From IMG/VR virus record IMGVR_UViG_2585427748_000014, positions 1 to 35,993 of that record: DNA of 35,993 nt, one strand, 5' to 3'. A program made the translations under genes and the position numbers. The stretch comes from a virus (Duplodnaviria; Heunggongvirae; Uroviricota; Caudoviricetes). A model generated the notes under the pieces. The model had not been told where the DNA came from, did not search any database, and saw only the letters and a list, made by a program, of their open reading frames with translations. This document shows, in pieces, positions 8,342 through 35,582 of this stretch. The first letter of the stretch is position 1; the number at the start of each line of letters is the position of its first letter.

Positions 8342-9094
8342 ATGAACCTTGAAGCCTTACCAAAATATTACTCCCCAAAATCTCCAAAATTGAGTGATGA
8401 CGCACCGGCGACAGGCTCGGGTGGTTTAACAATTACAGATGTGATGGCTGCGCAGGGGATGGTGCAGTCGAAAGCACCGCTTGGGTTTTCCTTATTCCTG
8501 GCAAAAGTTGGTGTTCAGGATCCTCAGTTTGCGATTGAAGGTCTGCTCAATTACGCGATGGCACTGGATAACCCGACATTGAACAAATTGAGTGAAGAAA
8601 CCCGGCTACAGATCATTCCTTACCTTGTGAATTTTGCCTTTGCTGATTATTCCAGGTCTGCGGCAAGTAAGGCTCGCTGTGAGCATTGTGCTGGTACTGG
8701 ATTTCATAATGTATTGCGCGAAGTGGTGAAACACTCCAGAAGCGGGGAGTCTGTTATCAAGGAAGAGTGGGTGAAGGAACTATGTCAGCATTGTCATGGT
8801 AAGGGAGAAGTCAGCACAGCGTGCAGAGGGTGTAAGGGTAAAGGTATTGTCCTGGATGAAAAAAGAACCCGGCTTCATGGCACGCCTGTTTATAAGATTT
8901 GTGGGCGTTGCAATGGAAACCGGTTTAGCCGTTTACCAACCACACTGGCGCGGCTTCATGTCCAGAAGCTGGTACCAGACCTGACGGATTATCAGTGGTA
9001 CAAAGGATATGCAGATGTCATTGATAAACTGGTTACAAAGTGCTGGCAGGAGGAAGCTTACGCTGAAGCACAATTGAGAAGGGTGACGAGATAA
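8342..9094 (+). CDS. Q: Late-gene antitermination protein Q
   Basis: 250 aa with CxxC zinc-binding pairs (CEHCAGTG, CQHCHGKG, CRGCKGKG, CGRC); positioned before the lysis genes. Confidence 0.8.
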   Translation: MNLEALPKYYSPKSPKLSDDAPATGSGGLTITDVMAAQGMVQSKAPLGFSLFLAKVGVQDPQFAIEGLLNYAMALDNPTLNKLSEETRLQIIPYLVNFAFADYSRSAASKARCEHCAGTGFHNVLREVVKHSRSGESVIKEEWVKELCQHCHGKGEVSTACRGCKGKGIVLDEKRTRLHGTPVYKICGRCNGNRFSRLPTTLARLHVQKLVPDLTDYQWYKGYADVIDKLVTKCWQEEAYAEAQLRRVTR

Positions 9095-9180
9095 GCGATT
9101 TTCGCCGAAGATAACGACATAATGCTTGTGTTTCTCAAAAAATATGGATAAGATTTTCTCAACGATGGGGCTTGTGTATC

Positions 9181-9226
9181 TATCGTTGAACGATTTTTAC
9201 GACCTCGCTATTGCGAGGTTTTTTTA
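9181..9226 (+). terminator. Tandem rho-independent terminators downstream of Q (tR'-like): hairpin 9203-9218 CCTCGCTATTGCGAGG plus T-run, preceded by a smaller hairpin plus T-run
   Basis: GC-rich stems followed by U tracts on the + strand. Confidence 0.7.
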
Positions 9227-9262
9227 TGGTTTTTTTCTATTCAATCTACATCAAAATCAATG

Positions 9263-9271
9263 TGTTATAAT
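9263..9271 (+). promoter_or_regulatory. Extended -10 promoter (TGtTATAAT) upstream of the moron gene at 9309
   Basis: Perfect TATAAT at 9266-9271 with TG at 9263-9264. Confidence 0.5.
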
Positions 9272-9308
9272 GTTTTCTGTAAAACAACATTAAAAACAGG
9301 AGAACATT

Positions 9309-9578
9309 ATGAAACTGACCTCTATCCATCTTGAAATACTACGTCGAGTGAATGAATTGCAGCCAAAGGATTCTAGAATTCAGGCTGCATCATTACCTCA
9401 TCTCTCAGCAAAAGAGGTTAATTTTGCTATTTCAGATCTTGCTGATATAGGTTTTATCGATGTTATACGAAGCAAATCTGCCGAAGGTGGATTGATTGCT
9501 AATGAGATAACGTCAAAAGGTTTTGCTTTTTTGAGTGAGATTGGCGCTGAAAAAAATTCATCGATGAGCACTCATTGA
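9309..9578 (+). CDS. Small winged-helix-like protein (89 aa), A+T-rich moron gene
   Basis: AGGAG Shine-Dalgarno; wHTH-like features (LEILRRVNELQ...ISDLADIGFIDVIRS); A+T-rich relative to neighbours. Confidence 0.5.
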   Translation: MKLTSIHLEILRRVNELQPKDSRIQAASLPHLSAKEVNFAISDLADIGFIDVIRSKSAEGGLIANEITSKGFAFLSEIGAEKNSSMSTH

Positions 9579-9592
9579 TTTCTGCTTCAATC

Positions 9593-9610
9593 GGCTGCCA
9601 ATTGGCAGCC
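9593..9610. promoter_or_regulatory. Perfect 18-bp palindrome GGCTGCCAATTGGCAGCC (hairpin or dimeric-regulator site)
   Basis: Perfect inverted repeat read from the sequence; a related copy lies at 10616-10633. Confidence 0.5.
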
Positions 9611-9775
9611 TAAACTGTAAAGTGAATTTAAAATCGCCTACAATTGATGCTTAAATTTTGTTCTGTATCATCTGCAGGTTTAGGGATATCACAGTAGCTT
9701 TCTGACAAGAAGAGTTCTTTTCTTCTACCAATGAAGTGGTTATGTTAACCTGCGCTAAATCGAGACTGGTGCGGA

Positions 9776-10582
9776 GTGGAATCGAAAGTGTCATATTTTT
9801 ACAGAAGCAAGAATATTTCAGGTGTTTCTATAAATGAAGATAGCTTGATTAGCTTAAGCACGGCAATTGTCGAACGCTGCGTTAAAATGAATGAGCAAGC
9901 TCAAAAGGAAAGTAGGGAAGTTTGTGCCCAATGTGTTTTTTTTATTTTGTTCGATGGTAAGGGATATAAAGTTGATTCTATCGGTGAGCTTGTGAAATAC
10001 TTTAGACAGGCCACTAGGATTGATCAAATAATTTTTACTATTGAAACTTATCAAAGTCGACAGTCTAACAGGATGAATGGATCTTGGATGGAGCTACGAA
10101 TTGATGAGAGGAATTCAAATAGCAGCACAATGATTGTAGCATCGGAAGATAATGAGTGGGTTGACTCGTTATGGATTACGATTCAGGATTTACTTAACAA
10201 GTGCAAAAATAAATTTAGATTTTTTAGAACAGCTTGGACTATGTTAAGTATCCAGATTTCAGGTGTGACAGTTGGCTTTTTGCTTAGCTTATGGACAGCC
10301 TCAAAACTGGCGCCAAAACTATCAATCGATGGTGCATTTGCTTTATCATTTATTTGTATCTTTATTTTGTTTTCGAACTTATGGAGCTTTGCTATTCCAT
10401 TAATAATTAAGCTTATCGACTTTTTGTTTCCTAGTGTTAAGTTTGTTATTAATGGTAAAAATTACTTTCACTGGAGTGTCCAGGCTATAATTGGAGCGAT
10501 TGCCAGTGCGGTTATATTATATTTTATTAGCTCCATGTTGCTTTTTGCATTAGAAATGTTAAATAGCATCATTAAGAAATAG
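9776..10582 (+). CDS. Hypothetical membrane protein: soluble N-terminal domain plus three C-terminal transmembrane helices (A+T-rich moron); start uncertain (GTG 9776 or a downstream start)
   Basis: Three hydrophobic segments in the C-terminal third; A+T-rich; flanked by related hairpins. Confidence 0.5.
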   Translation: MESKVSYFYRSKNISGVSINEDSLISLSTAIVERCVKMNEQAQKESREVCAQCVFFILFDGKGYKVDSIGELVKYFRQATRIDQIIFTIETYQSRQSNRMNGSWMELRIDERNSNSSTMIVASEDNEWVDSLWITIQDLLNKCKNKFRFFRTAWTMLSIQISGVTVGFLLSLWTASKLAPKLSIDGAFALSFICIFILFSNLWSFAIPLIIKLIDFLFPSVKFVINGKNYFHWSVQAIIGAIASAVILYFISSMLLFALEMLNSIIKK

Positions 10583-10615
10583 TTAATGAATTAGTTATAA
10601 TTACATCAATTCTAT

Positions 10616-10640
10616 GGCTGCCAAATGGTGGCCTTTTTTA
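10616..10640 (+). terminator. Rho-independent terminator after the moron membrane gene (GGCTGCCAAATGGTGGCC plus T-run)
   Basis: 7-bp stem (including G-U pairs) followed by TTTTTT. Confidence 0.6.
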
Positions 10641-10690
10641 TTCCTCTCATTTCTATTTCTGAGAGGACTCACTGCAATAAGAGGTGGCTA

Positions 10691-11077
10691 ATGTCCGATC
10701 CGATTTCCGGCACAGGGTTAGCTGGTGGAGCCCTAACGGGCGCTAGTATTTATGGACTGCTGACCGGAACTGATTACGGCGTTGTATTTGGCGCATTTGC
10801 AGGGGCTGTATTCTATATAGCAACAGCAGCAGATCTGAGTGCATCGCGTCGACTGGCATATTTTATCGTGTCATATATTGCTGGGATCCTTTGCTCTGGG
10901 TTGGTTGGCTCCAAGCTGGCAAACTTGACCGGATACAGTGATAAACCTCTGGATGCTATTGGTGCCGTAATCGTCTCTGCTTTAGCCGTTAAAATCCTGA
11001 CGTTCCTGAATAATCAGGATATCGGCTCCCTGGGGGGGCTCATAACGCGCCGGGGAGGTTCAGGTGGAGCTAAATGA
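10691..11077 (+). CDS. Putative holin (multi-TM small membrane protein)
   Basis: AAGAGG Shine-Dalgarno; Gly/Ala-rich hydrophobic segments; first gene of the lysis cassette after Q. Confidence 0.6.
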   Translation: MSDPISGTGLAGGALTGASIYGLLTGTDYGVVFGAFAGAVFYIATAADLSASRRLAYFIVSYIAGILCSGLVGSKLANLTGYSDKPLDAIGAVIVSALAVKILTFLNNQDIGSLGGLITRRGGSGGAK

Positions 11078-23452: not shown

Positions 23453-23601
23453 CGGCTGAATACCTTACTGATCGCTTCTTTGATTGCGCCAGCTACTGGC
23501 GCATTAATCCCTTCGAATTGCTGAATATGCCGATCAGTGAAATTCCCTTGCTGGTCAGTCAGGCAAACAGGATAGAGCAGGAGAAACGCACACATGGCTG
23601 A
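23419..23601 (+). CDS. Tail assembly chaperone -1 frameshift extension (probably expressed as a fusion with 23183..23452)
   Basis: Overlapping ORF in the -1 frame running into the tape-measure start; T-run GGGTTTTTC at 23432-23440. Confidence 0.45.
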   Translation: MACGWVFPPGLTAEYLTDRFFDCASYWRINPFELLNMPISEIPLLVSQANRIEQEKRTHG

Positions 23602-25426
23602 ATTTGAGCTTAAGGCGTTGATCACCGGTGTCGACAGGCTTTCTCCCGCGCTGTCGAAAATGCAAAAGAAAATCCGGGGATTTAAACGCCAGGCGGAAGA
23701 AGCGTCACAGGGTGGGCTGGCGCTTGGTGGCGGACTGGCAGCGGGTCTGACGCTTTCCCTGAAATCTTATGCCGATCAGGAAAACGCCGCCACCGGGCTG
23801 AAAGTCGCCATGATGGATGCGAATGGCGAGGTTGGAAAGAGCTTTCAGGACATCAATAAACTGGCTATTGGCCTGGGTAACCAGCTACCCGGTACAACGG
23901 CTGATTTCCAGAACATGATGCAGATGCTGGTGCGTCAGGGGATCCCGGCAGAAAACATTCTTGGCGGTGTGGGTAAAGCGACAGCTTATCTTGCGGTACA
24001 ACTGAAAAAAACACCGGAAGCGGCTGCTGAGTTTGCTGCAAAGATGCAGGATGCTACCGGAACGGCGTCAGAAGACATGATGGGGCTGTTCGACACTATC
24101 CAGAAGGCGTTTTATCTGGGCGTTGACGATACCAACATGTTGTCCTTCTTCACTAAAACCAGTTCTGTTCTGAAGATGGTGAACAAGGACGGTCTTCAGG
24201 CTGCACAGAGCCTTGCCCCCATCAGCGTCATGATGGATCAGATGGGGATGAACGGGGAGTCGGCAGGTAATGCCCTGCGAAAAGTTATCCAGTCCGGATT
24301 AAGCGTTAAGAAAATCAGGGACGTCAATAAAATCATGGCCCGCCAGAAACTCGGGGTACAGCTCGATTTTACTGACGGCAAAGGAAGTTTTGGCGGTCTT
24401 GATAACATGTTCAGGCAACTGGCAAAGCTGCGAAAACTGACCGACGTTAAGCGAACAGGTGTACTTAAGGCAATATTTGGTGATGATGCCGAAACCCTTC
24501 AGGTGGTCAATGCACTAATCGATAAAGGAAAGGATGGCTACGATCAGATCCAGCAGAAGATGAATAAACAGGCCAGCCTGAATAAACGTGTTCAGGCCCA
24601 GCTTGGTACGCTGTCCAACCTGTGGGAGGCAATGACGGGGACCGCAACTAACGGCCTTGCGGCTATTGGCGGCGCATTTTCTGGTGACGCCAAAAATATC
24701 ACGCAATGGCTGGGGGAGTTGGGGGAGAAATTCACGAAGTTTGCGGATGAAAATCCCCGGGTTATTCGCGGCGTCGTCGGGCTTGCTGCCGGTCTTGCGA
24801 TTCTGAAACTGGGATTGATGGGCGTGGGCAGTGCCATCAGTATCGTCAGCAGGATCATGTCGATGACGCCGATTGGCATGATTGCGACGGCGATTGCCCT
24901 GGCTGCGGGATTAATTATCACTAACTGGGATGTTGTCGGACCTTATTTTAAGAAACTCTGGGAAACCATTAGTCCTTATTTTGAGGCTGGCTGGGAACTT
25001 CTGAAGAAGGTTTTTGCCTGGTCGCCGCTGGGGATGGTGATCAATAACTGGGGACCGGTTGTTAAGTGGTTTCAGGATATGTGGGATAAGCTGAAGCCGA
25101 TTATTGAATGGTTTACCGACAGTTCCGGTGACACGGTCGATGCCATTAACTCGGCGCAGTGGGGCGCGGGTGCTTATGATGCTTATGGGACGGGAATACC
25201 GGCACGGGGATACACGCCTTATCCGGCGGTGGATCCGGCTCAGGCAAACAACGCCTCCGATGCCACAGGCTCGAATCCCTTCATGATTAATAAAGCTACC
25301 GCGCCAAAAGTTGATGGTGAGATCAAGGTATCATTTATAAATATGCCACCAGATATGCGGGTTACGGAAACACGCTCCAGTGGCATTGATATAAATCACG
25401 ATGTTGGCTATACCCGATTTTGGTAG
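23594..25426 (+). CDS. Tail tape measure protein
   Basis: 610 aa; Ala/Gly/Gln-rich helical repeats and a central hydrophobic segment. Confidence 0.85.
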   Translation: MAEFELKALITGVDRLSPALSKMQKKIRGFKRQAEEASQGGLALGGGLAAGLTLSLKSYADQENAATGLKVAMMDANGEVGKSFQDINKLAIGLGNQLPGTTADFQNMMQMLVRQGIPAENILGGVGKATAYLAVQLKKTPEAAAEFAAKMQDATGTASEDMMGLFDTIQKAFYLGVDDTNMLSFFTKTSSVLKMVNKDGLQAAQSLAPISVMMDQMGMNGESAGNALRKVIQSGLSVKKIRDVNKIMARQKLGVQLDFTDGKGSFGGLDNMFRQLAKLRKLTDVKRTGVLKAIFGDDAETLQVVNALIDKGKDGYDQIQQKMNKQASLNKRVQAQLGTLSNLWEAMTGTATNGLAAIGGAFSGDAKNITQWLGELGEKFTKFADENPRVIRGVVGLAAGLAILKLGLMGVGSAISIVSRIMSMTPIGMIATAIALAAGLIITNWDVVGPYFKKLWETISPYFEAGWELLKKVFAWSPLGMVINNWGPVVKWFQDMWDKLKPIIEWFTDSSGDTVDAINSAQWGAGAYDAYGTGIPARGYTPYPAVDPAQANNASDATGSNPFMINKATAPKVDGEIKVSFINMPPDMRVTETRSSGIDINHDVGYTRFW

Positions 25427-25517: not shown

Positions 25518-26048
25518 ATGAAAGGCTATATCACAGCAAGTGTAATTCTTGGAGCAGCGGCTATTTTTTCATCTCTCATAATCTCTGGCAACATCTCCTT
25601 TAAAGATGAACATATTATTCAGTTATCTGGAGGAGCCATAAAACTTGGTGATGTTTATAAAGAAAATAAATTGATAAGTGCAAAGATTATTTTTCCAGAT
25701 AATCAGGGTGAACAGATTCTTGTTGTCGACGGCAATCCTGAAAACTTTAAGGAGGATTTTCAGGAGAAATTAAATAAAGTAATAAAAACTTTAAATGCGT
25801 CAAAGAAAAAAGATGAAGAGAAAGTTAGCCTGGATAATTTAAGTGTTATTGAAGAGTCTAAACTAGAGCTCGTTTCTGCGGTGCGTTACTCTGCTCAGTA
25901 TGTTCCTATGTTTACTCTGACGCTGGACAAAAAAGAAATTACCATGCCTAAAAATACGGTAATATTTCCATTTGCCAGCGATGAAACAGCTAAGTATTTA
26001 AATGAACAACAGCAAAAGTATAAAGATTCGTTGTTTCTGACTCGCTAA
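25518..26048 (+). CDS. Hypothetical signal-anchored or secreted protein (176 aa), A+T-rich moron inside the tail module
   Basis: N-terminal hydrophobic signal/anchor; Lys/Glu-rich body; A+T-rich; own promoter-like element and terminator. Confidence 0.55.
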   Translation: MKGYITASVILGAAAIFSSLIISGNISFKDEHIIQLSGGAIKLGDVYKENKLISAKIIFPDNQGEQILVVDGNPENFKEDFQEKLNKVIKTLNASKKKDEEKVSLDNLSVIEESKLELVSAVRYSAQYVPMFTLTLDKKEITMPKNTVIFPFASDETAKYLNEQQQKYKDSLFLTR

Positions 26049-29487: not shown

Positions 29488-30532
29488 ATTTCAGCGCCCG
29501 ACGCTGGCAGAAAATATCAGTATGCTCCGTAACGATTTATTCGCCAGGCTGGACGTCAGCAACACGCTCCGGCGCATGGATGAAGACGTGCGGGCAAAGG
29601 TGTATGCGGCGGCGCTGCATACGGTTTACGGGTACATCGATTATCTGGCAATGAACATGCTGCCTGACCTGTGCGATGAGTCCTGGCTGGCGCGACATGC
29701 TGCGATGAAACGGTGTCCGCGCAAGGGGGCCACGGCTGCCAGCGGGTATATGCGCTGGGAAGGTGTCAGCGATGGCCTGAAGGTGACCGCCGGGAGTGTT
29801 ATTCAGCGCGATGACCTGGTGCAGTACACGGCAACTGCCGATGCAACCAGCTCCGGTGGTGTCCTGCGCGTGCCGATCGCCTGCTCAAGTGCAGGCGCGG
29901 TCGGTAACGCTGACGACGGTACGTCATTAATCCTGGTCACGCCGGTGAATGGTCTGCCGTCTTCCGGCGTGGCAGATACACTGACAGGTGGATTTGATAC
30001 TGAAGAGCTGGAAACGTGGCGCGCCCGCGTCATTGAGCGGTATTACTGGACGCCTCAGGGCGGGGCTGACGGGGACTATGTCGTCTGGGCTAAAGAAGTG
30101 CCCGGCATTACCCGCGCATGGACATACCGACACTGGATGGGAACGGGGACTGTCGGTGTGATGATTGCCAGCAGTGACCTGATTAATCCCATTCCGGAAG
30201 AATCAACGGAAATGGCGGCAAGACAACATATCGGGCCACTGGCCCCGGTGGCAGGCTCTGATTTGTATGTGTTCAGGCCGGTGGCGCATACGGTGGATTT
30301 TCATATCCGTGTGACGCCGGATACACCAGAAATACGGGCTGCCATCACCGCCGAGTTGCGTTCGTTCCTGCTGCGTGATGGTTATCCGCAGGGAGAACTG
30401 AAGGTGTCGCGTATCAGTGAAGCGATTTCCGGTGCGAACGGGGAATACAGCCATCAGTTGCTTGCACCGGCAGACAATATCTCCATTGCAAAAAATGAAC
30501 TGGCGGTACTGGGGACGATTTCATGGACGTGA
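29474..30532 (+). CDS. Baseplate J-like protein (Mu gp47-like)
   Basis: 352 aa at the conserved position. Confidence 0.8.
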
Positions 30533-31107
30533 CAAACGATGATTACATCCGTCTGTTGTCGGCACTGTTGCCCCCCGGTCCGGCGTGGTCAGCCAGCGAT
30601 CCGGCGATTGCCGGTGCGGCACCGTCATTAACCCGCGTTCATCAGCGTGCGGATGCCCTGATGCGGGAGCTGGATCCGCGCACCACCACTGAACTGATAA
30701 ACCGCTGGGAGCGTCTGTGCGGCCTGCCGGATGAATGTATTCCTACAGGGACACAGACCCTTCGCCAGCGTCAGCAACGGCTGGATGCGAAGATTAATCT
30801 GGCGGGCGGCATTAATGAGGATTTTTACCTTGCACAGCTTGCTGCCCTGGGCAGACCAGACGCCACCATCACGCGATACGATAAAAGCACGTTCACCTGC
30901 TCATCTGCCTGTACTGACGCGGTGAATGCGCCGGAATGGCGGTATTACTGGCAGGTCAACATGCCAGCCGCCACCAACACCACCTGGATGACATGTGGCG
31001 ATCCCTGTGATTCCGCACTGCGTATCTGGGGCGACACCGTTGTCGAGTGTGTGCTTAACAAACTCTGCCCTTCGCATACCTACGTAATTTTTAAATATCC
31101 GGAGTAA
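30523..31107 (+). CDS. Tail protein (Mu gp48-like, YmfQ/DUF2313 family)
   Basis: 194 aa between baseplate J and the tail fibre. Confidence 0.7.
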
Positions 31108-31110
31108 TCC

Positions 31111-32211
31111 ATGCATCGTATAGACACGAAAACCGCGCAGAAGGATAAGTTCGGCGCGGGTAAGAACGGTTTTACCCGTGGTAACCCCCAGACCGGCACG
31201 CCTGCCACCGATCTGGATGATGACTACTTTGACATGTTGCAGGAAGAACTCTGCAGCGTGGTGGAGGCATCCGGTGCCAGCCTGGAGAAGGGGCGGCACG
31301 ATCAGCTTCTTACCGCGCTTCGTGCGCTGCTGTTAAGCCGCAAGAATCCGTTTGGCGATATCAAATCGGATGGCACTGTGCAAACGGCTCTCGAAAACCT
31401 GGGAATGACAGACATTCTGAATGATAAACAGGATAAAAATGATAATCTGACATCATTGTCGAGCTTAACAGGAATACCGGATGGGCTGGCATTTTTTACA
31501 GGTGCTGGAACAATGGATATGACAGCGCTGACTCAAAATGGTAGGGAAATTTTAAGTAAAAAAAACGTATCGGAAACTCTACAATATTTAACACTTGGTG
31601 ATGGAACAGGAAGGCTTTTGGGGGTTCAGGTATTTGGATCATCTGGGACTTATCACAAATCACCTGGTGTAACGAAAATTATAGTGGAAGCCGTTGGCGG
31701 TGGTGGTGCCAGTGGCAATTTATCAGCAACAGCCTCAAATAACTGTGGTGTAAGTGCTGCCGGTTCCAACGGGGCATATGCTAAAGCATTTTTTTATCAG
31801 TCTATACCTGAATCCGTGCAAGTAACTATTGGAAGCGGTGGTGTAGCAGGAACAGGACCAGGAGGCTCTGGAGGTGACGGCGGGAATACAAGCTTTGGTG
31901 ATTTGCTTGTATGCCCGGGAGGAAGGGGATCAACTCAAGTTCAGCAGGTACCTCCATTTTCAGGGGGAAGTGCAACAGAAGCACCAATTCCTACAGGGCA
32001 AGGGATTCTGTTCCATTCAGTTTCACGATCAAATTTATGTGGGGCACTTGGACTTGGTGATGATCAGGCGATTGGCGTTGAAAGTATAACCACTACTATG
32101 CTTGGGACATACGGTATTGGCGGGACAGGGAAATACAATAAGGCGTCATCAGGCCCAGCGACAGGAAATAATGGAAATCAGGGATATATTCTTGTGTGGG
32201 AGTATCAGTAA
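31111..32211 (+). CDS. Tail fibre protein (conserved N-terminus, divergent Gly-rich A+T-rich C-terminal domain)
   Basis: N-terminus [47 protein letters not shown] typical of fibre N-termini; composition changes at about 31380. Confidence 0.8.
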
Positions 32212-32390
32212 TGAGCGATATTTATGCAGTCGTACAAAATGGTGTCGTTACAAATCTTGTTGTATGGGATGGTAAGTCAGAGTTTAAGCCAGAAAAAGCG
32301 GATATAGTTAAATGTGTTGGAGATGTTGGTATTGGCTGGTCATATGACGGTAAAAAATTCATCAAGCCTGAAGATAAAACCGCGCAATAG
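32211..32390 (+). CDS. Small hypothetical protein downstream of the fibre (possible fibre chaperone)
   Basis: TAATG overlap with the fibre stop; GGGAG upstream; A+T-rich like the fibre C-terminus. Confidence 0.35.
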   Translation: MSDIYAVVQNGVVTNLVVWDGKSEFKPEKADIVKCVGDVGIGWSYDGKKFIKPEDKTAQ

Positions 32391-32410
32391 CGCGGTTTTA
32401 TTTATTTTAC
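32376..32410. terminator. Bidirectional rho-independent terminator between convergent genes (ACCGCGC-AATA-GCGCGGT flanked by A- and T-runs)
   Basis: Perfect 7-bp GC stem with an A tract upstream and a T tract downstream. Confidence 0.75.
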
Positions 32411-33421
32411 TGCTAAAATTCGTTTTCTTAGCATCAGCTCTAAAGGCTCCTCAACTAATTTATAAAGTATGATTGAGACTATGGTTATTATAACAAGGAG
32501 CGCTATTAAATAGAGTGGTCCGGGGTTATGTCCAAAGATTTTAAAGCAAAATAATATAATGGGTTGATGAATTAAATAAAAAATAAATGATGATTTCCCT
32601 AATAGCTCTAGGGTTTTTGAACTGAGGATAGTATGAATGACTCCATTTCTTAGATAGATGCATGAAGTAAAGAATATTACCATGGGGAGTAAATAATATA
32701 ACGAATAACGTAGACTATTATTTATGTTGTTGCTATAATATATAGCTATTAGCAGAGGTAATAGTGAAATTAAAAACAAAAGGCTGTCGACTGTCTGCTG
32801 TCGGCTGTTTTTCCAGCAAGCGTAAATAATCATGCCGCAAATAAATTCTACCAAGCGGCTTACTGGGAATATATAATATAACCAGTGATTAAGTTCTTCT
32901 GTTTGTATAATTTTTAAAAAATATATAGTTAATAGTAGAGTTATAATTGATATTGCAGTGATTACTTTCTTTGTAATTGATGTATAAATCAACGGAATAA
33001 ACATTAAATAAAAAAACAGCTCATCAGACAAAGACCATGATACACCATTTAATGAGAAGTAGTAATCCTCCTTTGGTATCCAACTTTGCATTAATAAAAT
33101 ATTTGTTAAGGTTTTTGAAAAATCAAAGTTCTTTAAGTGAATGGTTAGTAAAATAAATGGCATGGCTAATAATAGATGCATTGGAACAATTCTTGCCAAT
33201 CTTAAAAGAATAAACTGTCTTTTACTTGTTACTTCATTTTTTAGCTTGTCTTCATATGAATATGAAAGAATGAAGCCAGATAAAATAAAGAAAAAGGAAA
33301 CGCCAATAAATCCCTGGGAAAACATTTCTTTTACAAAAACACCAAAATAGTCTGTATTTAAATGGCATAAATAAACCATTAATGCAGCTATAAATCTGAG
33401 TCCTGTTAAGTGGCGAAGCAT
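32402..33421 (-). CDS. Acyltransferase family 3 membrane protein (O-antigen acetyltransferase-like conversion gene)
   Basis: ATG at 33421 with AGAGG Shine-Dalgarno; N-terminal motif RHLTGLRFIAALMVYLCH typical of acyltransferase-3; about 10 predicted TM helices; A+T-rich. Confidence 0.8.
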   Translation of the reverse strand: MLRHLTGLRFIAALMVYLCHLNTDYFGVFVKEMFSQGFIGVSFFFILSGFILSYSYEDKLKNEVTSKRQFILLRLARIVPMHLLLAMPFILLTIHLKNFDFSKTLTNILLMQSWIPKEDYYFSLNGVSWSLSDELFFYLMFIPLIYTSITKKVITAISIITLLLTIYFLKIIQTEELNHWLYYIFPVSRLVEFICGMIIYACWKNSRQQTVDSLLFLISLLPLLIAIYYSNNINNSLRYSLYYLLPMVIFFTSCIYLRNGVIHTILSSKTLELLGKSSFIFYLIHQPIILFCFKIFGHNPGPLYLIALLVIITIVSIILYKLVEEPLELMLRKRILAVK

Positions 33422-34156
33422 CAATAACCTCTTGTTATGAAGATAAAGCAATTCAAAAGAGGCATTTTATGACTGTAGGGGATTGGTGTCTATATGAATG
33501 AGTAATCTGGTTTTTAAAATCTTCTTTAATTACAAAATAAACCTTTCTTAGGCTATAGATTTGTGGCTGTAACACTGTGTGTCCACGACATTGAGACATC
33601 CTTCCGCTTTGCTATAGATGTGGAATTCAGGATCAAGCGATATCGGACTCATCCTCAGCACCACCCGGTTAATCTGGATAACGGGAGAAGGGAAGCGCTG
33701 CCAGAAGATGATGATGGTTACAGTTCTGCACTGGCTATTCTGCACTGGCTATATTCGTGGTGATCACTTACATAATTAATGACGCCAGGAATACGGAGTT
33801 TGATGATTGCCTGGTGATGTGAGAAAAAACTCATACACACAAAGCTTTGCACTGGATTGCAAGGCTTTGTGCTATTCGATAGCACGAGTTTGAATGAAAA
33901 TCAGCCGTTATCGATTTTACGTATTTTTGTATGAGAGGATTTTTACCTCCTCCCACCGATCCTCCATAACTTTACGACACTGTCTCTAGGACTGCTATGT
34001 GCCAAGAGCGGAATTTTCTAATATTATGCTGCATTCGTTTAAGGGGAGCAGATCAGCTAACGACTCCTACGTCCTGGGGAAAGGTCACATATGCTAAACA
34101 GCAGCTCAGCAAAGAGAAGAGCGAATTTGGTAACGGGAAACCGTTATGATATGAAT

Positions 34157-34185
34157 AAGGCTCCCAATGGGAGCCTTATTTTTTG
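34157..34185. terminator. Hairpin plus T-run terminator (AAGGCTCCC-AAT-GGGAGCCTT, then TTTTTT), possibly bidirectional
   Basis: Perfect stem followed by U tract on the + strand; lies just 3' of the minus-strand small gene. Confidence 0.6.
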
Positions 34186-34201
34186 ATAGGGATGATGAAT
34201 A

Positions 34202-34375
34202 TTATCCGAGGCTTACTGGCTTTACACCTTTCTTCGGCCCGACCATATCCATGTCTTTTTCCTTCTGACCAACTTTGGCAAGTTTGTTGCCGTCGATGGA
34301 AGCCCAGAAGTCGAGAGAGCGTCTTGCACTAGCCATAGCTTTATCAGAAGTGATTTTTTTATGTTGTTTGATCAT
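34202..34375 (-). CDS. Small Lys-rich hypothetical protein (57 aa)
   Basis: AAGAGG upstream of ATG 34373-34375; below the ORF-track length cutoff; downstream of the 190-aa gene on the same strand. Confidence 0.4.
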   Translation of the reverse strand: MIKQHKKITSDKAMASARRSLDFWASIDGNKLAKVGQKEKDMDMVGPKKGVKPVSLG

Positions 34376-34465
34376 GGTTAACCTCTTTGGCTATAGACTT
34401 TACGGATAATTTTATAACAAATGCGTTCATTAAACAAACAGCCCATCGACTGCTGATTGAGATTG

Positions 34466-35038
34466 TCATTCTTCAACTGGGTCAATGCCATTCACTTTCC
34501 GTCGTATGGTGTCGAGGATGTCGTGCACATCTGCAGACATCTTACTGTGGTCATGCCATACTTGGGCAAATCCGTAGCTCCTGTAACGCGGTTGTGCATC
34601 TTCAGTAGGATCTTGAATATAAACGTCGTCAAGCTCCGCGATCTGGCAGAAGGTAGTCGCGTAAATAAGTGCGATGATCAACACATTGCCTGTTAGGTCG
34701 GTATCCTCATCTGAAATGAAGTTTTCTAACATGCAAATTGAGAATTGCTCACGGCGCCAGTCGTATTTACAAATGATAACCGCATGAAGCTGTTCGGGCT
34801 CATCACGGTCGATCAGCTTTAACGTTATATCCAGTATTCCATCTACAGCGTCACCGCGATAGGTCTGCATCGCCCATCGCCAGTCCAAGTGGCTTTGTAA
34901 ACTTGCATCTTCAAGCTGGCGTCTCTCTTCATCGCTCAAAACGCCTACAGAGATATTAGTCCATCCAAGTGATTCAATAGCTTTTTGTGTTGTTGCTAGA
35001 CATTGATCATGTATTTGCTGAGTAGATAGGAAGCTCAC
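34466..35038 (-). CDS. Hypothetical acidic protein (190 aa), GTG start, att-proximal cargo
   Basis: AAGGA 9 nt upstream of GTG; no recognisable family. Confidence 0.45.
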   Translation of the reverse strand: MSFLSTQQIHDQCLATTQKAIESLGWTNISVGVLSDEERRQLEDASLQSHLDWRWAMQTYRGDAVDGILDITLKLIDRDEPEQLHAVIICKYDWRREQFSICMLENFISDEDTDLTGNVLIIALIYATTFCQIAELDDVYIQDPTEDAQPRYRSYGFAQVWHDHSKMSADVHDILDTIRRKVNGIDPVEE

Positions 35039-35410
35039 TTCATGTCATCCTTTATCTTTTGTCCCACAGCAATTATATCGTTCAAGTGTGAAAGTAGGCG
35101 AGTTATTCTGACCTACGCCTCTCGCTATACGTGGTTTTAGAGGGCTGACATGACTGTTCCCAGCTGATTGCCACACGGCATTGTTCGCAAGATTTATGTC
35201 GACTCAATTATGAACGTCTGCTGATCGCTCATAACAGGCATTCACTACATTTATCTTCATTGGCTATGCAAGTCGTAATACAAGTTGGGACAAAACTGAG
35301 ACACATAAGGCCTCACAATGGCTTGCAAGGCTTTACATGTTTTGATGTGATGGGACGTGTGAGCGCAGTGTTGATGGGGTAATGCTTTGAATTAGAAACG
35401 GATTCTTATA

Positions 35411-35456
35411 ATTCGTAATGCGAAGGTCGTAGGTTCGACTCCTATTATCGGCACCA
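35411..35456 (+). other. attR core: 3' fragment of a tRNA-Thr gene (anticodon loop through CCA), not a complete tRNA
   Basis: ATTCGTAATGCGAAGGTCGTAGGTTCGACTCCTATTATCGGCACCA contains a T-arm (GGTTCGACTCC), acceptor 3' strand and CCA; the 5' half of the tRNA is absent. Confidence 0.75.
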
Positions 35457-35582
35457 TTAAAATCAAAGAGTTACCCCATATTTAAATACACCACGTTTCC
35501 TCCTGTGCCGTATTTGTGCCATTGTAACCTTGGCAATTCATCAAAATACTGTTCTGACATCAGGCAGTGCAGGTGCAGACAT

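Follow-up and report, generated by a model that had tools for sequence, protein, structure and literature searches.

The tail-fibre gene at 31111-32211 (plus strand) of the DNA analysed here, a stretch of 35,993 nucleotides hereafter called the window, raises the question of whether a phage fibre has taken its receptor-binding end from elsewhere and, if so, how much other DNA came with it. Fibre mosaicism is well known, and the exchange of fibre tips is the main route by which temperate phages change host as well as the basis of host-range engineering in phages and tailocins. The gene is an intact ORF of 366 amino acids, and the element that carries it is an SfV-like E. coli prophage with a Mu-type tail, a temperate myovirus. 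It is highly probable that the fibre is a chimera, in which an SfV-like anchor is followed by a foreign low-GC cassette comprising a connector, a TNF-like/glycine-rich (TG) receptor-binding domain and a translationally coupled chaperone. The locus is a clear but ordinary case of a phage host-range module swap.

The first 98 codons (31111-31403, plus strand) form an SfV orf21/StfP-type N-terminal module, recognised by its nucleotide identity to SfV and its GC3. A sequence-only reading had called this N-terminus conserved, and codons 1-98 are indeed 96.6% identical in nucleotide sequence to SfV orf21/StfP, the same value that is obtained over window positions 30001-31403. The roughly 98 conserved residues are encoded directly 3' of a Mu gp48-like (YmfQ) baseplate gene, the genes upstream of the fibre match the Pfam families Phage_Mu_Gp48 and Baseplate_J, and codons 1-98 weakly resemble the N-terminal part of protein S, the fibre of phage Mu (E 0.02). 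The orf21/StfP family to which these codons belong has matches in 1,804 complete E. coli genomes out of 5,426, and the module would anchor the fibre to the Mu-type baseplate. Membership in this family does not extend to the whole protein, as residues 99-216 of SfV orf21 have no relationship to residues 99-366 of the window fibre. SfV homology stops at 31403, with the boundary located at 31400-31403, close to the break that had been placed near 31380, and comparison of the N- and C-terminal parts found no collinearity with a single fibre family.

The composition of the gene, as windowed GC and codon analysis made clear, is not uniform either. Total GC is 0.57 in codons 1-75, 0.37 in codons 99-166, 0.48 in codons 167-366 and 0.38 in the small downstream ORF, and the corresponding GC3 values are 0.667, 0.265, 0.295 and 0.288; both the A+T-richness of the C-terminal part and the like composition of the small ORF had been pointed out beforehand. 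GC3 in the backbone, represented by 17 late-gene ORFs with one moron ORF left out, has a mean of 0.632, a standard deviation of 0.060 and a minimum of 0.456 (90-codon windows, n=367), so that the C-terminal fibre windows (0.256-0.300) lie more than five standard deviations under the backbone mean and lower than all 367 backbone windows. The A+T-rich tract runs past 32390 into an opposite-strand acyltransferase gene, which, with a GC of 0.30, is yet more A+T-rich. A shift of this kind could in principle reflect the amino-acid and codon usage of a glycine-rich domain in a vertically inherited gene, and the C-terminal part is unusual in the way already recognised from the sequence, with glycine making up 22.5% of residues 167-366 versus 7.8% in the backbone proteins. 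However, glycine codons (GGN) push total GC up, so that the A+T-richness of the tip is partly hidden and amino-acid composition cannot explain the shift. The shift is also largest at third positions, where changes are synonymous (from 0.67 to 0.27-0.30), is just as large in the glycine-poor connector and in the small ORF, coincides with the end of SfV homology, and affects DNA that is found in identical form on unrelated N-termini and baseplates. Vertical inheritance is as good as refuted by the data here.

Horizontal replacement of the fibre end, as had been proposed, is most directly seen in other genomes. The C-terminal DNA is present at 98-100% identity behind three unrelated fibre N-termini (MHRIDTK..., MAKNDFK... 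and MNRSDAPKK...) and two other baseplate types, and the backbones bearing it differ (Mu gp47/gp48 type vs baseplate J plus DUF2612). The module of C-terminal fibre DNA and small ORF occurs in 12 of the 5,426 complete E. coli genomes. The E41 prophage has 31336-35462 in common with the window at 99.86% identity, and the segments shared with AW1.7, TW10590 and FDAARGOS_1059 are 31389-32369, 31421-33882 and 30001-32369, respectively. A 68-bp linker box at 31336-31403 (plus strand; residues 76-98) is the only stretch common to SfV, whose homology runs to 31403, and the unrelated E41-type fibre, whose homology begins at 31336; it also matches the side-tail-fibre genes of three further coliphages at 93-94% identity. 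By this overlap the linker appears to be the recombination junction between fibre types. Moreover, at least 30 distinct non-TG C-terminal types follow the SfV-type N-terminus in 76 IMG/VR loci, which marks the linker as a general site of fibre diversification. The right ends mapped for the shared segments lie at 32369, about 33880 and 35462. The swapped unit that had been proposed, consisting of the fibre end and its partner, stands as far as those two components are concerned. Its extent does not: the exchanged unit is often larger and can extend as far as the acyltransferase gene or the end of the prophage, at about 35462, and a further unit at 31749-32191 is nested inside it.

The foreign module begins with an A+T-rich connector (codons 99-166, 31404-31608, plus strand; GC 0.368), which matches internal parts of several tail-fibre PHROGs, and continues with the TG domain (codons 167-366, 31609-32208, plus strand), assigned by Pfam, AlphaFold and Foldseek. 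Residues 180-358 match Pfam Gly_rich_2 (PF21722) with 32.3 bits against a gathering cut-off of 24.3. In an AlphaFold model of the fibre monomer, the core of the TG domain has a pLDDT of about 80-90, and confidence is low at residues 1-166, including the connector, and at 306-331. The top solved structure found by Foldseek is the Pam3 fibre gp24 (7YPX_A, E 5e-8), with further matches to 7YFW_a (E 1e-6), the Bxb1 tail tip and the TG domains of ALK/LTK (LTK, 3e-4). The domain is thus predicted to be a TNF-like beta-sandwich with stacked glycine-rich loops bearing a GGGGxGG motif; the GGGG-S-G motif of the window fibre (G196-G199, S201, G202) is invariant in 27 homologues. An S16 gp38-type adhesin was considered as nearest relative and rejected, as Pam3 gp24, the Bxb1 tail tip and ALK/LTK all ranked above it, and 6F45 was absent among the 50 fold matches listed. 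When the PDB was searched with sequence profiles, neither the fibre alignment nor that of the small ORF returned anything relevant, so the link to Pam3 rests on fold comparison. A tblastn search of 50,697 phage genomes gave no match for the glycine-rich domain or the small ORF, a result in which low-complexity filtering and query length were likely limiting; since PHROG profiles and BFVD structures include relatives, this absence is uninformative. In all, 242 viral predicted structures match the fold at E <= 1e-3, and in many genera the domain terminates fibres encoded directly after the baseplate wedge genes.

Public annotation implies a different history, in which StfP has been truncated and a deletion has joined it to unrelated DNA, leaving only a decayed pseudogene. 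PGAP calls codons 1-99 a partial pseudogene in KSC1031, E41, FDAARGOS_1059 and CP52E, and RefSeq labels it 'StfP, incomplete, missing C-terminus' and leaves the glycine-rich part unannotated. The tape-measure gene is in addition flagged as frameshifted in KSC1031, a record near-identical to the window, and the prophage may therefore not make virions. Against decay of the fibre, the 366-residue frame is open in the window and uninterrupted in each of the six E. coli loci that were read completely, and diverged alleles have dN/dS values of 0.10-0.17, showing that they are under purifying selection. The C-terminal domain exceeds the Gly_rich_2 threshold and ends fibres behind wedge genes across genera, the coupled downstream ORF is conserved (see below), and the annotations of AW1.7 and TW10590 give the full-length protein. 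A decayed remnant is very improbable, and the pseudogene label is a naming artefact, the gene having been classed by the family of its N-terminus.

Within the chimeric fibre, the TG domain would be the receptor-binding domain, and by analogy with related fibres it would lie distally on the trimer and contact the receptor through variable loop tips. A comparison with E. coli CP52E places most of the variation in this part of the gene. Of 202 mismatches over 30002-33873, 151 fall within 31749-32191 (plus strand), corresponding to about residues 213-361, and 3' of this tract there is a single mismatch in about 1.7 kb. The tract has a dS of 0.76-1.7 and a dN/dS of 0.10-0.16, and this clustering marks it as a hypervariable tip and a second exchange unit nested within the larger cassette. 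A new tip would be expected to change host range, for which the TG fold in Klebsiella phages provides a precedent (PMC12671077).

The small ORF downstream (32211-32390, plus strand), here called 'mini-Tfa', was suspected to be a partner of the fibre, and synteny, coupling, fold and profile comparisons bear on that suspicion. Its likely start is the ATG at 32211, giving 59 amino acids, rather than the GTG at 32196. The two genes are translationally coupled: this ATG overlaps the fibre stop codon (TAATG), and a Shine-Dalgarno sequence, GGGAG, lies inside the last W-E-Y codons of the fibre. The stop/start layout is the same in Yersinia and Burkholderia (TAATG/TGATG). In 40 of 45 IMG/VR loci the glycine-rich domain is followed, at a distance of 0-15 nt, by a homologous ORF of about 60 residues, and a homologue also follows the domain in Yersinia and Burkholderia prophages, which bears the partnership out. 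The ORF matches phrog_14370 (E 8e-28), and its model (pLDDT 84) has as its best solved match the Pam3 chaperone gp25 (7YPX chain a; TM 0.67, rmsd 2.2 A over 55 columns, probability 1.00, Foldseek E 0.076). An hhalign comparison aligned it with residues 1-61 of a PF16778 protein (probability 95.4%, E 1.8e-8), and HMMER matches fall at the N-terminus of Caudo_TAP proteins, with longer homologues bearing Caudo_TAP C-terminally. The Pfam domains in such homologues occupy residues of about 40-130 (Caudo_TAP) and 66-126 (PF16778). A BLASTP comparison of a long homologue with SfV Orf22 was not significant (E 0.78), so that the connection to Tfa rests on hhalign and the Caudo_TAP-bearing homologues. 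The family is abundant, with 4,683 cluster representatives matching at E <= 1e-3 and 76 of the 150 best database representatives no longer than 80 residues.

Taken with its position directly 3' of the fibre gene, this chaperone homology suggests that the 59-residue protein would be a stand-alone client-binding domain of a Tfa-type assembly chaperone. It could instead be a small moron with no relation to the fibre, or a structural adaptor that the fibre tip retains. The protein stops at residue 59 and lacks the C-terminal helical (trimerisation) domain that defines Caudo_TAP/PF16778; Pfam gave no match to it even at E <= 5 and only a sub-threshold DUF5874 match to homologues of 105-108 residues; and phrog_14370 is labelled 'unknown function', leaving the family with neither a Pfam model nor an assigned function. 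These alternatives are nevertheless quite unlikely, as chaperones scoring above the Caudo_TAP/PF16778 thresholds have an N-terminal domain homologous to the ORF, the structure it matches best is the domain with which Pam3 gp25 binds the fibre, and its position at and coupling to TG fibres are strictly conserved. As a chaperone, the protein would bind the nascent glycine-rich domain in the manner of the N-terminal beta-sandwich of Pam3 gp25 or Mu Tfa, and, since it lacks the helical domain, trimerisation would presumably be left to the N-terminal part of the fibre itself. At 59 residues it would be all that the tip requires as a partner and represents the smallest layout of a Tfa-type chaperone, which is convenient for engineering.

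Convergent to the small ORF lies a gene for an acyltransferase-3 membrane protein (32402-33421, minus strand), identified by Pfam and PHROG, with 339 residues from its ATG and an ORF extending to a TTG at 33451. It matches Acyl_transf_3 (PF01757) with E 2.2e-30 over model positions 4-325/326, the O-acetyltransferase phrog_3333 with E 7.5e-51, and a PHROG O-antigen acetylase; among phage proteins, the closest homologue is the O-acetyltransferase of TL-2011b (35% identity). A promoter-like site precedes the gene at 33492-33464 on the minus strand. By analogy, the enzyme would acetylate O-antigen/LPS as a lysogenic-conversion gene, and it sits where SfV has gtrV/B/A. Between the two convergent genes, a hairpin at 32372-32403 with a 14-bp stem (AAAACCGCGC/GCGCGGTTTT) and a T-run is likely to be a bidirectional terminator; it falls entirely within the cassette version that carries the acyltransferase, rightward of the junction at 32369. 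At the right end, 35286-35474 is 94.7% identical to the SfV gtrA-int interval and probably represents the right prophage end (attR) and the right limit of the largest shared arm. No tRNA was found when one was sought at the prophage end, so the attR call rests on likeness to the SfV attP region.

The presence of this enzyme complicates the question of what is under selection. It is possible that selection acts on the acyltransferase and right arm as a lysogenic-conversion cassette, with the tip and small ORF hitch-hiking and no host-range selection needed. The largest shared segment (that of E41) spans the linker to attR, including the acyltransferase and accessory DNA; SfV holds its gtr serotype-conversion genes at the same position; and the enzyme gene, being more A+T-rich than the tip, appears to have a separate origin. 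However, the tip and small ORF also move independently of the acyltransferase, from which a sharp boundary at 32369 separates them, many non-TG C-termini are found behind the same SfV-type N-terminus, and the tip has its own nested exchange unit with identical flanks, which points to selection on the tip itself. Selection on the conversion genes in place of the fibre is unlikely.

The fibre and the enzyme are nonetheless associated. In complete E. coli genomes, all seven copies of the acyltransferase adjoin this fibre module and none is found elsewhere. Counted as sequence clusters, an adjacent AT3 gene accompanies 14 of 27 TG-fibre clusters vs 2 of 21 non-TG fibre types on SfV-type baseplates (Fisher p = 0.0023), in samples that are small, phylogenetically non-independent and drawn from different backbones. 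The pairing is near one-to-one, with 13 acyltransferase clusters across the 14 TG clusters. An identical tip allele also occurs without the acyltransferase (AW1.7 and FDAARGOS_1059), and a tip allele that differs in about 16% of its amino acids occurs with an identical one; the link is a loose one. It is a doubtful but conceivable proposal that the TG tip, mini-chaperone and acyltransferase-3 constitute a receptor module of three genes that is transferred as a whole between unrelated myovirus prophages, with the pairing due to functional co-adaptation and not to a moron hot-spot. If this were true, a single crossover in the linker would deliver a new LPS specificity, its folding factor and a receptor-masking enzyme, and, should the association of TG tips with acyltransferase-3 hold, receptor choice would be tied to receptor masking in lysogens.

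For the chimeric fibre, the following sequence of events can be proposed. Homologous recombination at the linker would have replaced everything downstream with a foreign low-GC cassette, which in the window also brought the convergent acyltransferase-3 gene and the remaining right arm as far as attR. The variable distal TG loops (about residues 213-361) would then bind a surface glycan, most likely LPS/O-antigen, and so set the host range. The acyltransferase, expressed from the prophage, may modify that glycan, resulting in serotype conversion and protection from superinfection. The locus shows, through junctions that could be mapped cleanly, where a Pam3-like glycine-rich tip is joined to a prophage chassis common in E. 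coli and Shigella, and exposes two blind spots in annotation: intact fibres are named truncated StfP pseudogenes in RefSeq, and the mini-chaperone family is unmodelled in Pfam.

Among known systems, the closest in prophage family is SfV / E. coli e14 StfP, with which the window shares its baseplate genes; the SfV gene order of fibre, chaperone, convergent O-antigen-modification gene and attP also matches. However, the SfV orf21 fibre has 216 residues and another C-terminus (366 residues in the window), its orf22 (Tfa) chaperone has 167 residues and a Caudo_TAP domain (59 residues in the window), and it carries the glucosyltransferase genes gtrV-B-A in place of an acyltransferase. Tfa chaperones (PF02413, PF16778; Mu Tfa 5YVQ) are likewise encoded 3' of the fibre and have a variable N-terminal client-binding domain homologous to the small ORF, which lacks the conserved C-terminal domain modelled by Caudo_TAP and Phage_tail_APC. 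North et al. are said to have found in 2019 that Mu Tfa stays on the fibre. The pairing of an O-antigen-recognising receptor-binding protein with an O-antigen-modifying conversion gene is a classical one. It is exemplified by Sf6, in which the gene for the receptor-binding protein comes first, then a terminator, then oac, a convergent gene for an O-antigen acetylase of the Acyl_transf_3 family, and then int/attP. Sf6 is, however, a podovirus whose receptor-binding protein is a beta-helix endorhamnosidase tailspike, with neither a glycine-rich domain nor a separate chaperone, and its Oac is only distantly related (E 1.7e-16 against the window acyltransferase profile).

The nearest parallel for the exchanged proteins themselves is Pam3, for which the structure and chaperone function of gp24/gp25 have been reported (PMC9608196; PDB 7YPX/7YFW). 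The Pam3 gp24 fibre likewise terminates in a TNF-like and glycine-rich domain, which has a motif of the GGGGxGG type, and is encoded directly after the baseplate wedge genes; gp25 is a chaperone encoded after the fibre, and its N-terminal beta-sandwich binds the TG domain. The best solved matches of both window proteins come from this one Pam3 entry, 7YPX, although the likeness is at fold level only (22-25% identity), the anchor is of SfV/Mu type in the window fibre and a helical bundle in Pam3, and the helical trimerisation domain of gp25 (residues 64-162) is missing from the 59-residue partner. Pam3-like TNF-like and glycine-rich fibres are also described in enterobacterial phages, namely Klebsiella TFP_Y (SCNJ1-Y) and MMNM_27 (PMC12671077), a likeness of architecture. 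These fibres reside on virulent or other backbones, and acyltransferase linkage is not described for them (PMC12671077). Experiments showed that these gp24-like Klebsiella fibres bind LPS, and the mutations that alter their host range fall in the glycine-rich domain (PMC12671077).

The window is an SfV/e14-type prophage of a temperate myovirus, in which repressor, CII-like and replication genes on the left are followed by terminase, sheath, tape-measure and Mu-type baseplate genes (gp45/46/47/48 homologues), and the gp48-like gene directly precedes the fibre gene (31111-32211, plus strand, 366 aa). A prophage 99.9% identical to the window is found in porcine E. coli KSC1031, where its right end adjoins a LysR-family remnant and paoD. 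The tape-measure gene (window 23594-25426; L001, the KSC1031 locus, 1-904) is recorded as frameshifted in KSC1031, and is a 610-aa ORF in the window. Between it and the DNA-circularisation gene lies an A+T-rich 176-aa ORF (25518-26048, plus strand; GC 0.34, GC3 0.30) whose N-terminus is hydrophobic; SfV lacks a gene there, and the ORF looks like a moron inserted in the tail operon. A second A+T-rich island (9001-10750, GC about 0.36) occupies the early/late junction region and includes a 268-aa ORF (9776-10582) whose sole match is phrog_30208, of unknown function.

The sequence-only reading proposed a mosaic fibre with a swapped A+T-rich receptor-binding end, starting near 31380, and a small downstream partner ORF of like composition. 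The break in composition is real and large, with GC3 falling from 0.667 in codons 1-75 to 0.265 in codons 99-166 and 0.295 in codons 167-366; the small ORF (32211-32390, plus strand, 59 aa) indeed has a similar GC3 of 0.288. Windows of 90 codons in the distal fibre range from 0.256 to 0.300, against a mean of 0.632 ± 0.060 and a minimum of 0.456 (n=367) across 17 late backbone genes. Glycine makes up 22.5% of fibre residues 167-366 and 7.8% of backbone proteins; because glycine codons are GC-rich, this bias hides, and does not cause, the fall in total GC.

The mosaic interpretation also holds. Homology to the SfV family stops at 31400-31403 in both megablast and blastn searches. A query comprising the fibre N-terminal module and the upstream baseplate gene matches 1,804 of 5,426 complete E. 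coli genomes, and the DNA downstream of 31403 is present in 12 of them. Copies of this downstream DNA, 98-100% identical, follow three unrelated N-termini of fibres, with differing baseplates and at differing chromosomal sites. Strains E41 (window 31336-35462, 99.86%) and AW1.7 (31389-32369, near dacD) carry it on a baseplate J and DUF2612 backbone, TW10590 (31421-33882, argW/intS site) behind a third N-terminus, and FDAARGOS_1059 (up to 32369, dusA site) and CP52E (30002-33873, bioA/ybhB site) on SfV-type backbones. The only sequence common to the SfV and E41-type fibres is a 68-bp box (31336-31403, encoding a stretch of 24 protein letters), which is taken as the crossover site. Among 76 IMG/VR loci, the linker after the SfV-type N-terminus leads into at least 30 C-terminal types without the TNF-like/glycine-rich (TG) domain and several glycine-rich ones, so this junction is very active, and the mosaic in the window is one example of what it yields. 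Another glycine-rich tip, shorter than that of the window, is found on SfV-type N-termini in L069 and 20 other IMG/VR loci (L067-L137); these fibres of 304-327 aa are very Gly-rich, end in ...GICIIEEFA and are joined at the ...ENLG linker as in the window, with a small-domain ORF next and an acyltransferase-3 gene following in 9 of the 21.

RefSeq annotation would instead make the fibre a pseudogene, with codons 1-99 read as 'StfP, incomplete' and the remainder mostly unannotated, but all copies read have an uninterrupted 366-aa frame, dN/dS between diverged alleles is 0.10-0.17, and full-length homologues exist in Escherichia, Citrobacter, Salmonella, Yersinia, Pragia, Leminorella and Burkholderia. 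In the KSC1031, E41, FDAARGOS_1059 and CP52E records (L001, L002, L003 and L006), PGAP labels the intact chimeric fibre 'StfP/hypothetical protein, incomplete, missing C-terminus', and three of the four have no annotation over about 800 bp of conserved open coding sequence. This labelling of mosaic fibres is a systematic artefact.

The swapped tip of this intact fibre includes residues 180-358, which exceed the Pfam Gly_rich_2 threshold. An AlphaFold monomer model built from 27 homologues is confident over most of residues 167-366 and lacks confidence in the N-terminal part, as expected when a trimeric fibre is modelled as a monomer. Its top Foldseek match in the PDB is the cyanophage Pam3 fibre gp24 (7YPX_A, E 5e-8), followed by mycobacteriophage Bxb1 tail-tip chains and then by the ligand-binding TNF-like/glycine-rich domains of LTK and ALK. 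BFVD contains 242 viral models that match at E <= 1e-3, and many of these bear the name of a glycine-rich domain protein or a tail-fibre protein. The distal, receptor-binding end of the Pam3 fibre is built from this pair of domains, whose glycine stem is conserved and whose loop tips vary (PMC9608196); in Klebsiella phages, gp24-like fibres bind LPS, and host-range mutations arise in their glycine-rich domain (PMC12671077). Differences between the window and CP52E are almost confined to 31749-32191 (residues ~213-361, ~66-70% identity), flanked by 1-4 mismatches per 100 bp upstream and a single mismatch in ~1.7 kb downstream. By this alignment the segment is a nested exchange unit, and its confinement is consistent with the variable loop tips of Pam3 and the Klebsiella mutations. 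In Citrobacter (L014), Pragia (L016) and Salmonella diarizonae (L018), glycine-rich-tip fibre genes adjoin Hin/Gin-type invertase genes (Resolvase plus HTH_7), and L018 has a second fibre/Tfa pair on the opposite strand, which suggests that invertible host-range switches use some TG tips as alternative cassettes.

The small ORF is closely coupled to the fibre: its ATG overlaps the fibre stop codon (TAATG), and its Shine-Dalgarno sequence, GGGAG, is formed by the terminal Trp-Glu-Tyr codons of the fibre, of which Glu and Tyr do not vary across the 27 aligned sequences. In the Yersinia and Burkholderia loci the arrangement is the same, with TGATG as the overlap. The proposal that it is a fibre partner is borne out by a homologous ORF 0-15 nt 3' of the glycine-rich domain in 40 of 45 IMG/VR loci. 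The model of the small ORF product (pLDDT 84) finds a single meaningful match in the PDB, the Pam3 chaperone gp25 (7YPX chain a; TM 0.67, rmsd 2.2 A, 55 columns), in which residues 1-55 are a fibre-gripping beta-sandwich and residues 64-162 a helical trimeriser (PMC9608196). The family profile aligns with residues 1-61 of a 129-aa PF16778 chaperone (hhalign 95%, E 1.8e-8) and matches 4,683 cluster representatives at E <= 1e-3. Nearly all of the best 150 start to match inside their first ten residues, and the lengths of the 150 are bimodal (76 of <=80 aa, 43 of 121-150 aa); Caudo_TAP is present at the C-terminus in five of seven long members tested (all 127-134 aa). Given this N-terminal match and the C-terminal Caudo_TAP of long members, the 59-aa protein is predicted to be the stand-alone client-binding domain of a Tfa-type chaperone, and probably works like the N-terminal half of these chaperones. 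It falls outside the Pfam Tfa families because their models cover the C-terminal domain, which it lacks. A freshwater metagenome phage contig (L013, 3171-5492) carries the fibre-chaperone pair as a tandem duplication: it encodes two glycine-rich proteins in succession (276 and 255 aa), and behind each comes a chaperone with the small-ORF-type N-terminal domain, one of them 108 aa long with an unannotated C-terminal extension, the other 129 aa long and bearing PF16778.

Between the small ORF and a convergent Acyl_transf_3 gene (32402-33421, minus strand, GC 0.30) lies a hairpin (32372-32403). All 7 copies of this acyltransferase gene in complete E. coli genomes adjoin this fibre module; the module also exists without the gene, and the junction is then at 32369, within the final codons of the small ORF. 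Among more distant glycine-rich fibres, those in Yersinia and Leminorella are directly adjoined by a convergent acyltransferase-3 gene, and in Burkholderia such a gene is ~2.6 kb farther downstream and on the same strand. A home-made acyltransferase profile, which picks up even the distant Sf6 Oac at 1.7e-16, was used to score co-occurrence after dereplication at 70% identity. An acyltransferase lies within 4 kb in 14 of 27 TG-domain clusters versus 2 of 21 non-TG fibre types on SfV-type baseplates (Fisher p = 0.0023), and the pairing of TG clusters with distinct acyltransferase clusters is nearly one-to-one. The association is suggestive, but it comes from small, phylogenetically non-independent samples. 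CP52E combines a differing tip allele with an identical acyltransferase, which argues against tight functional matching. Between the acyltransferase and an attP-like site lies accessory DNA (33452-35285), shared in full with the unrelated E41 prophage at 99.86%, which contains a frameshifted S24-peptidase remnant (~33611-33822, from the KSC1031 annotation) and a minus-strand 190-aa ORF (34466-35038; phrog_4350, unknown function).

Both the observation and the interpretation of the sequence-only reading thus stand; the receptor, the host-range change and the acetylation target are, all three, what we infer. The novelty is modest. New are a Pam3-type tip on an SfV chassis with mapped junctions, a previously unannotated one-domain chaperone family, the RefSeq mis-annotation pattern and a possible statistical association of glycine-rich tips with acyltransferase-3 genes. 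Fibre mosaicism with chaperone co-transfer is a textbook phenomenon. The fold and the chaperone principle were already solved in Pam3 (PMC9608196). Compared with SfV, the window has replacements for the fibre C-terminus, the Caudo_TAP chaperone orf22 and gtrV/B/A, with the acyltransferase at the position of gtr, and its fibre-acyltransferase layout matches the tailspike-oac layout of Sf6, from which the fibre-acetylase arrangement is known.
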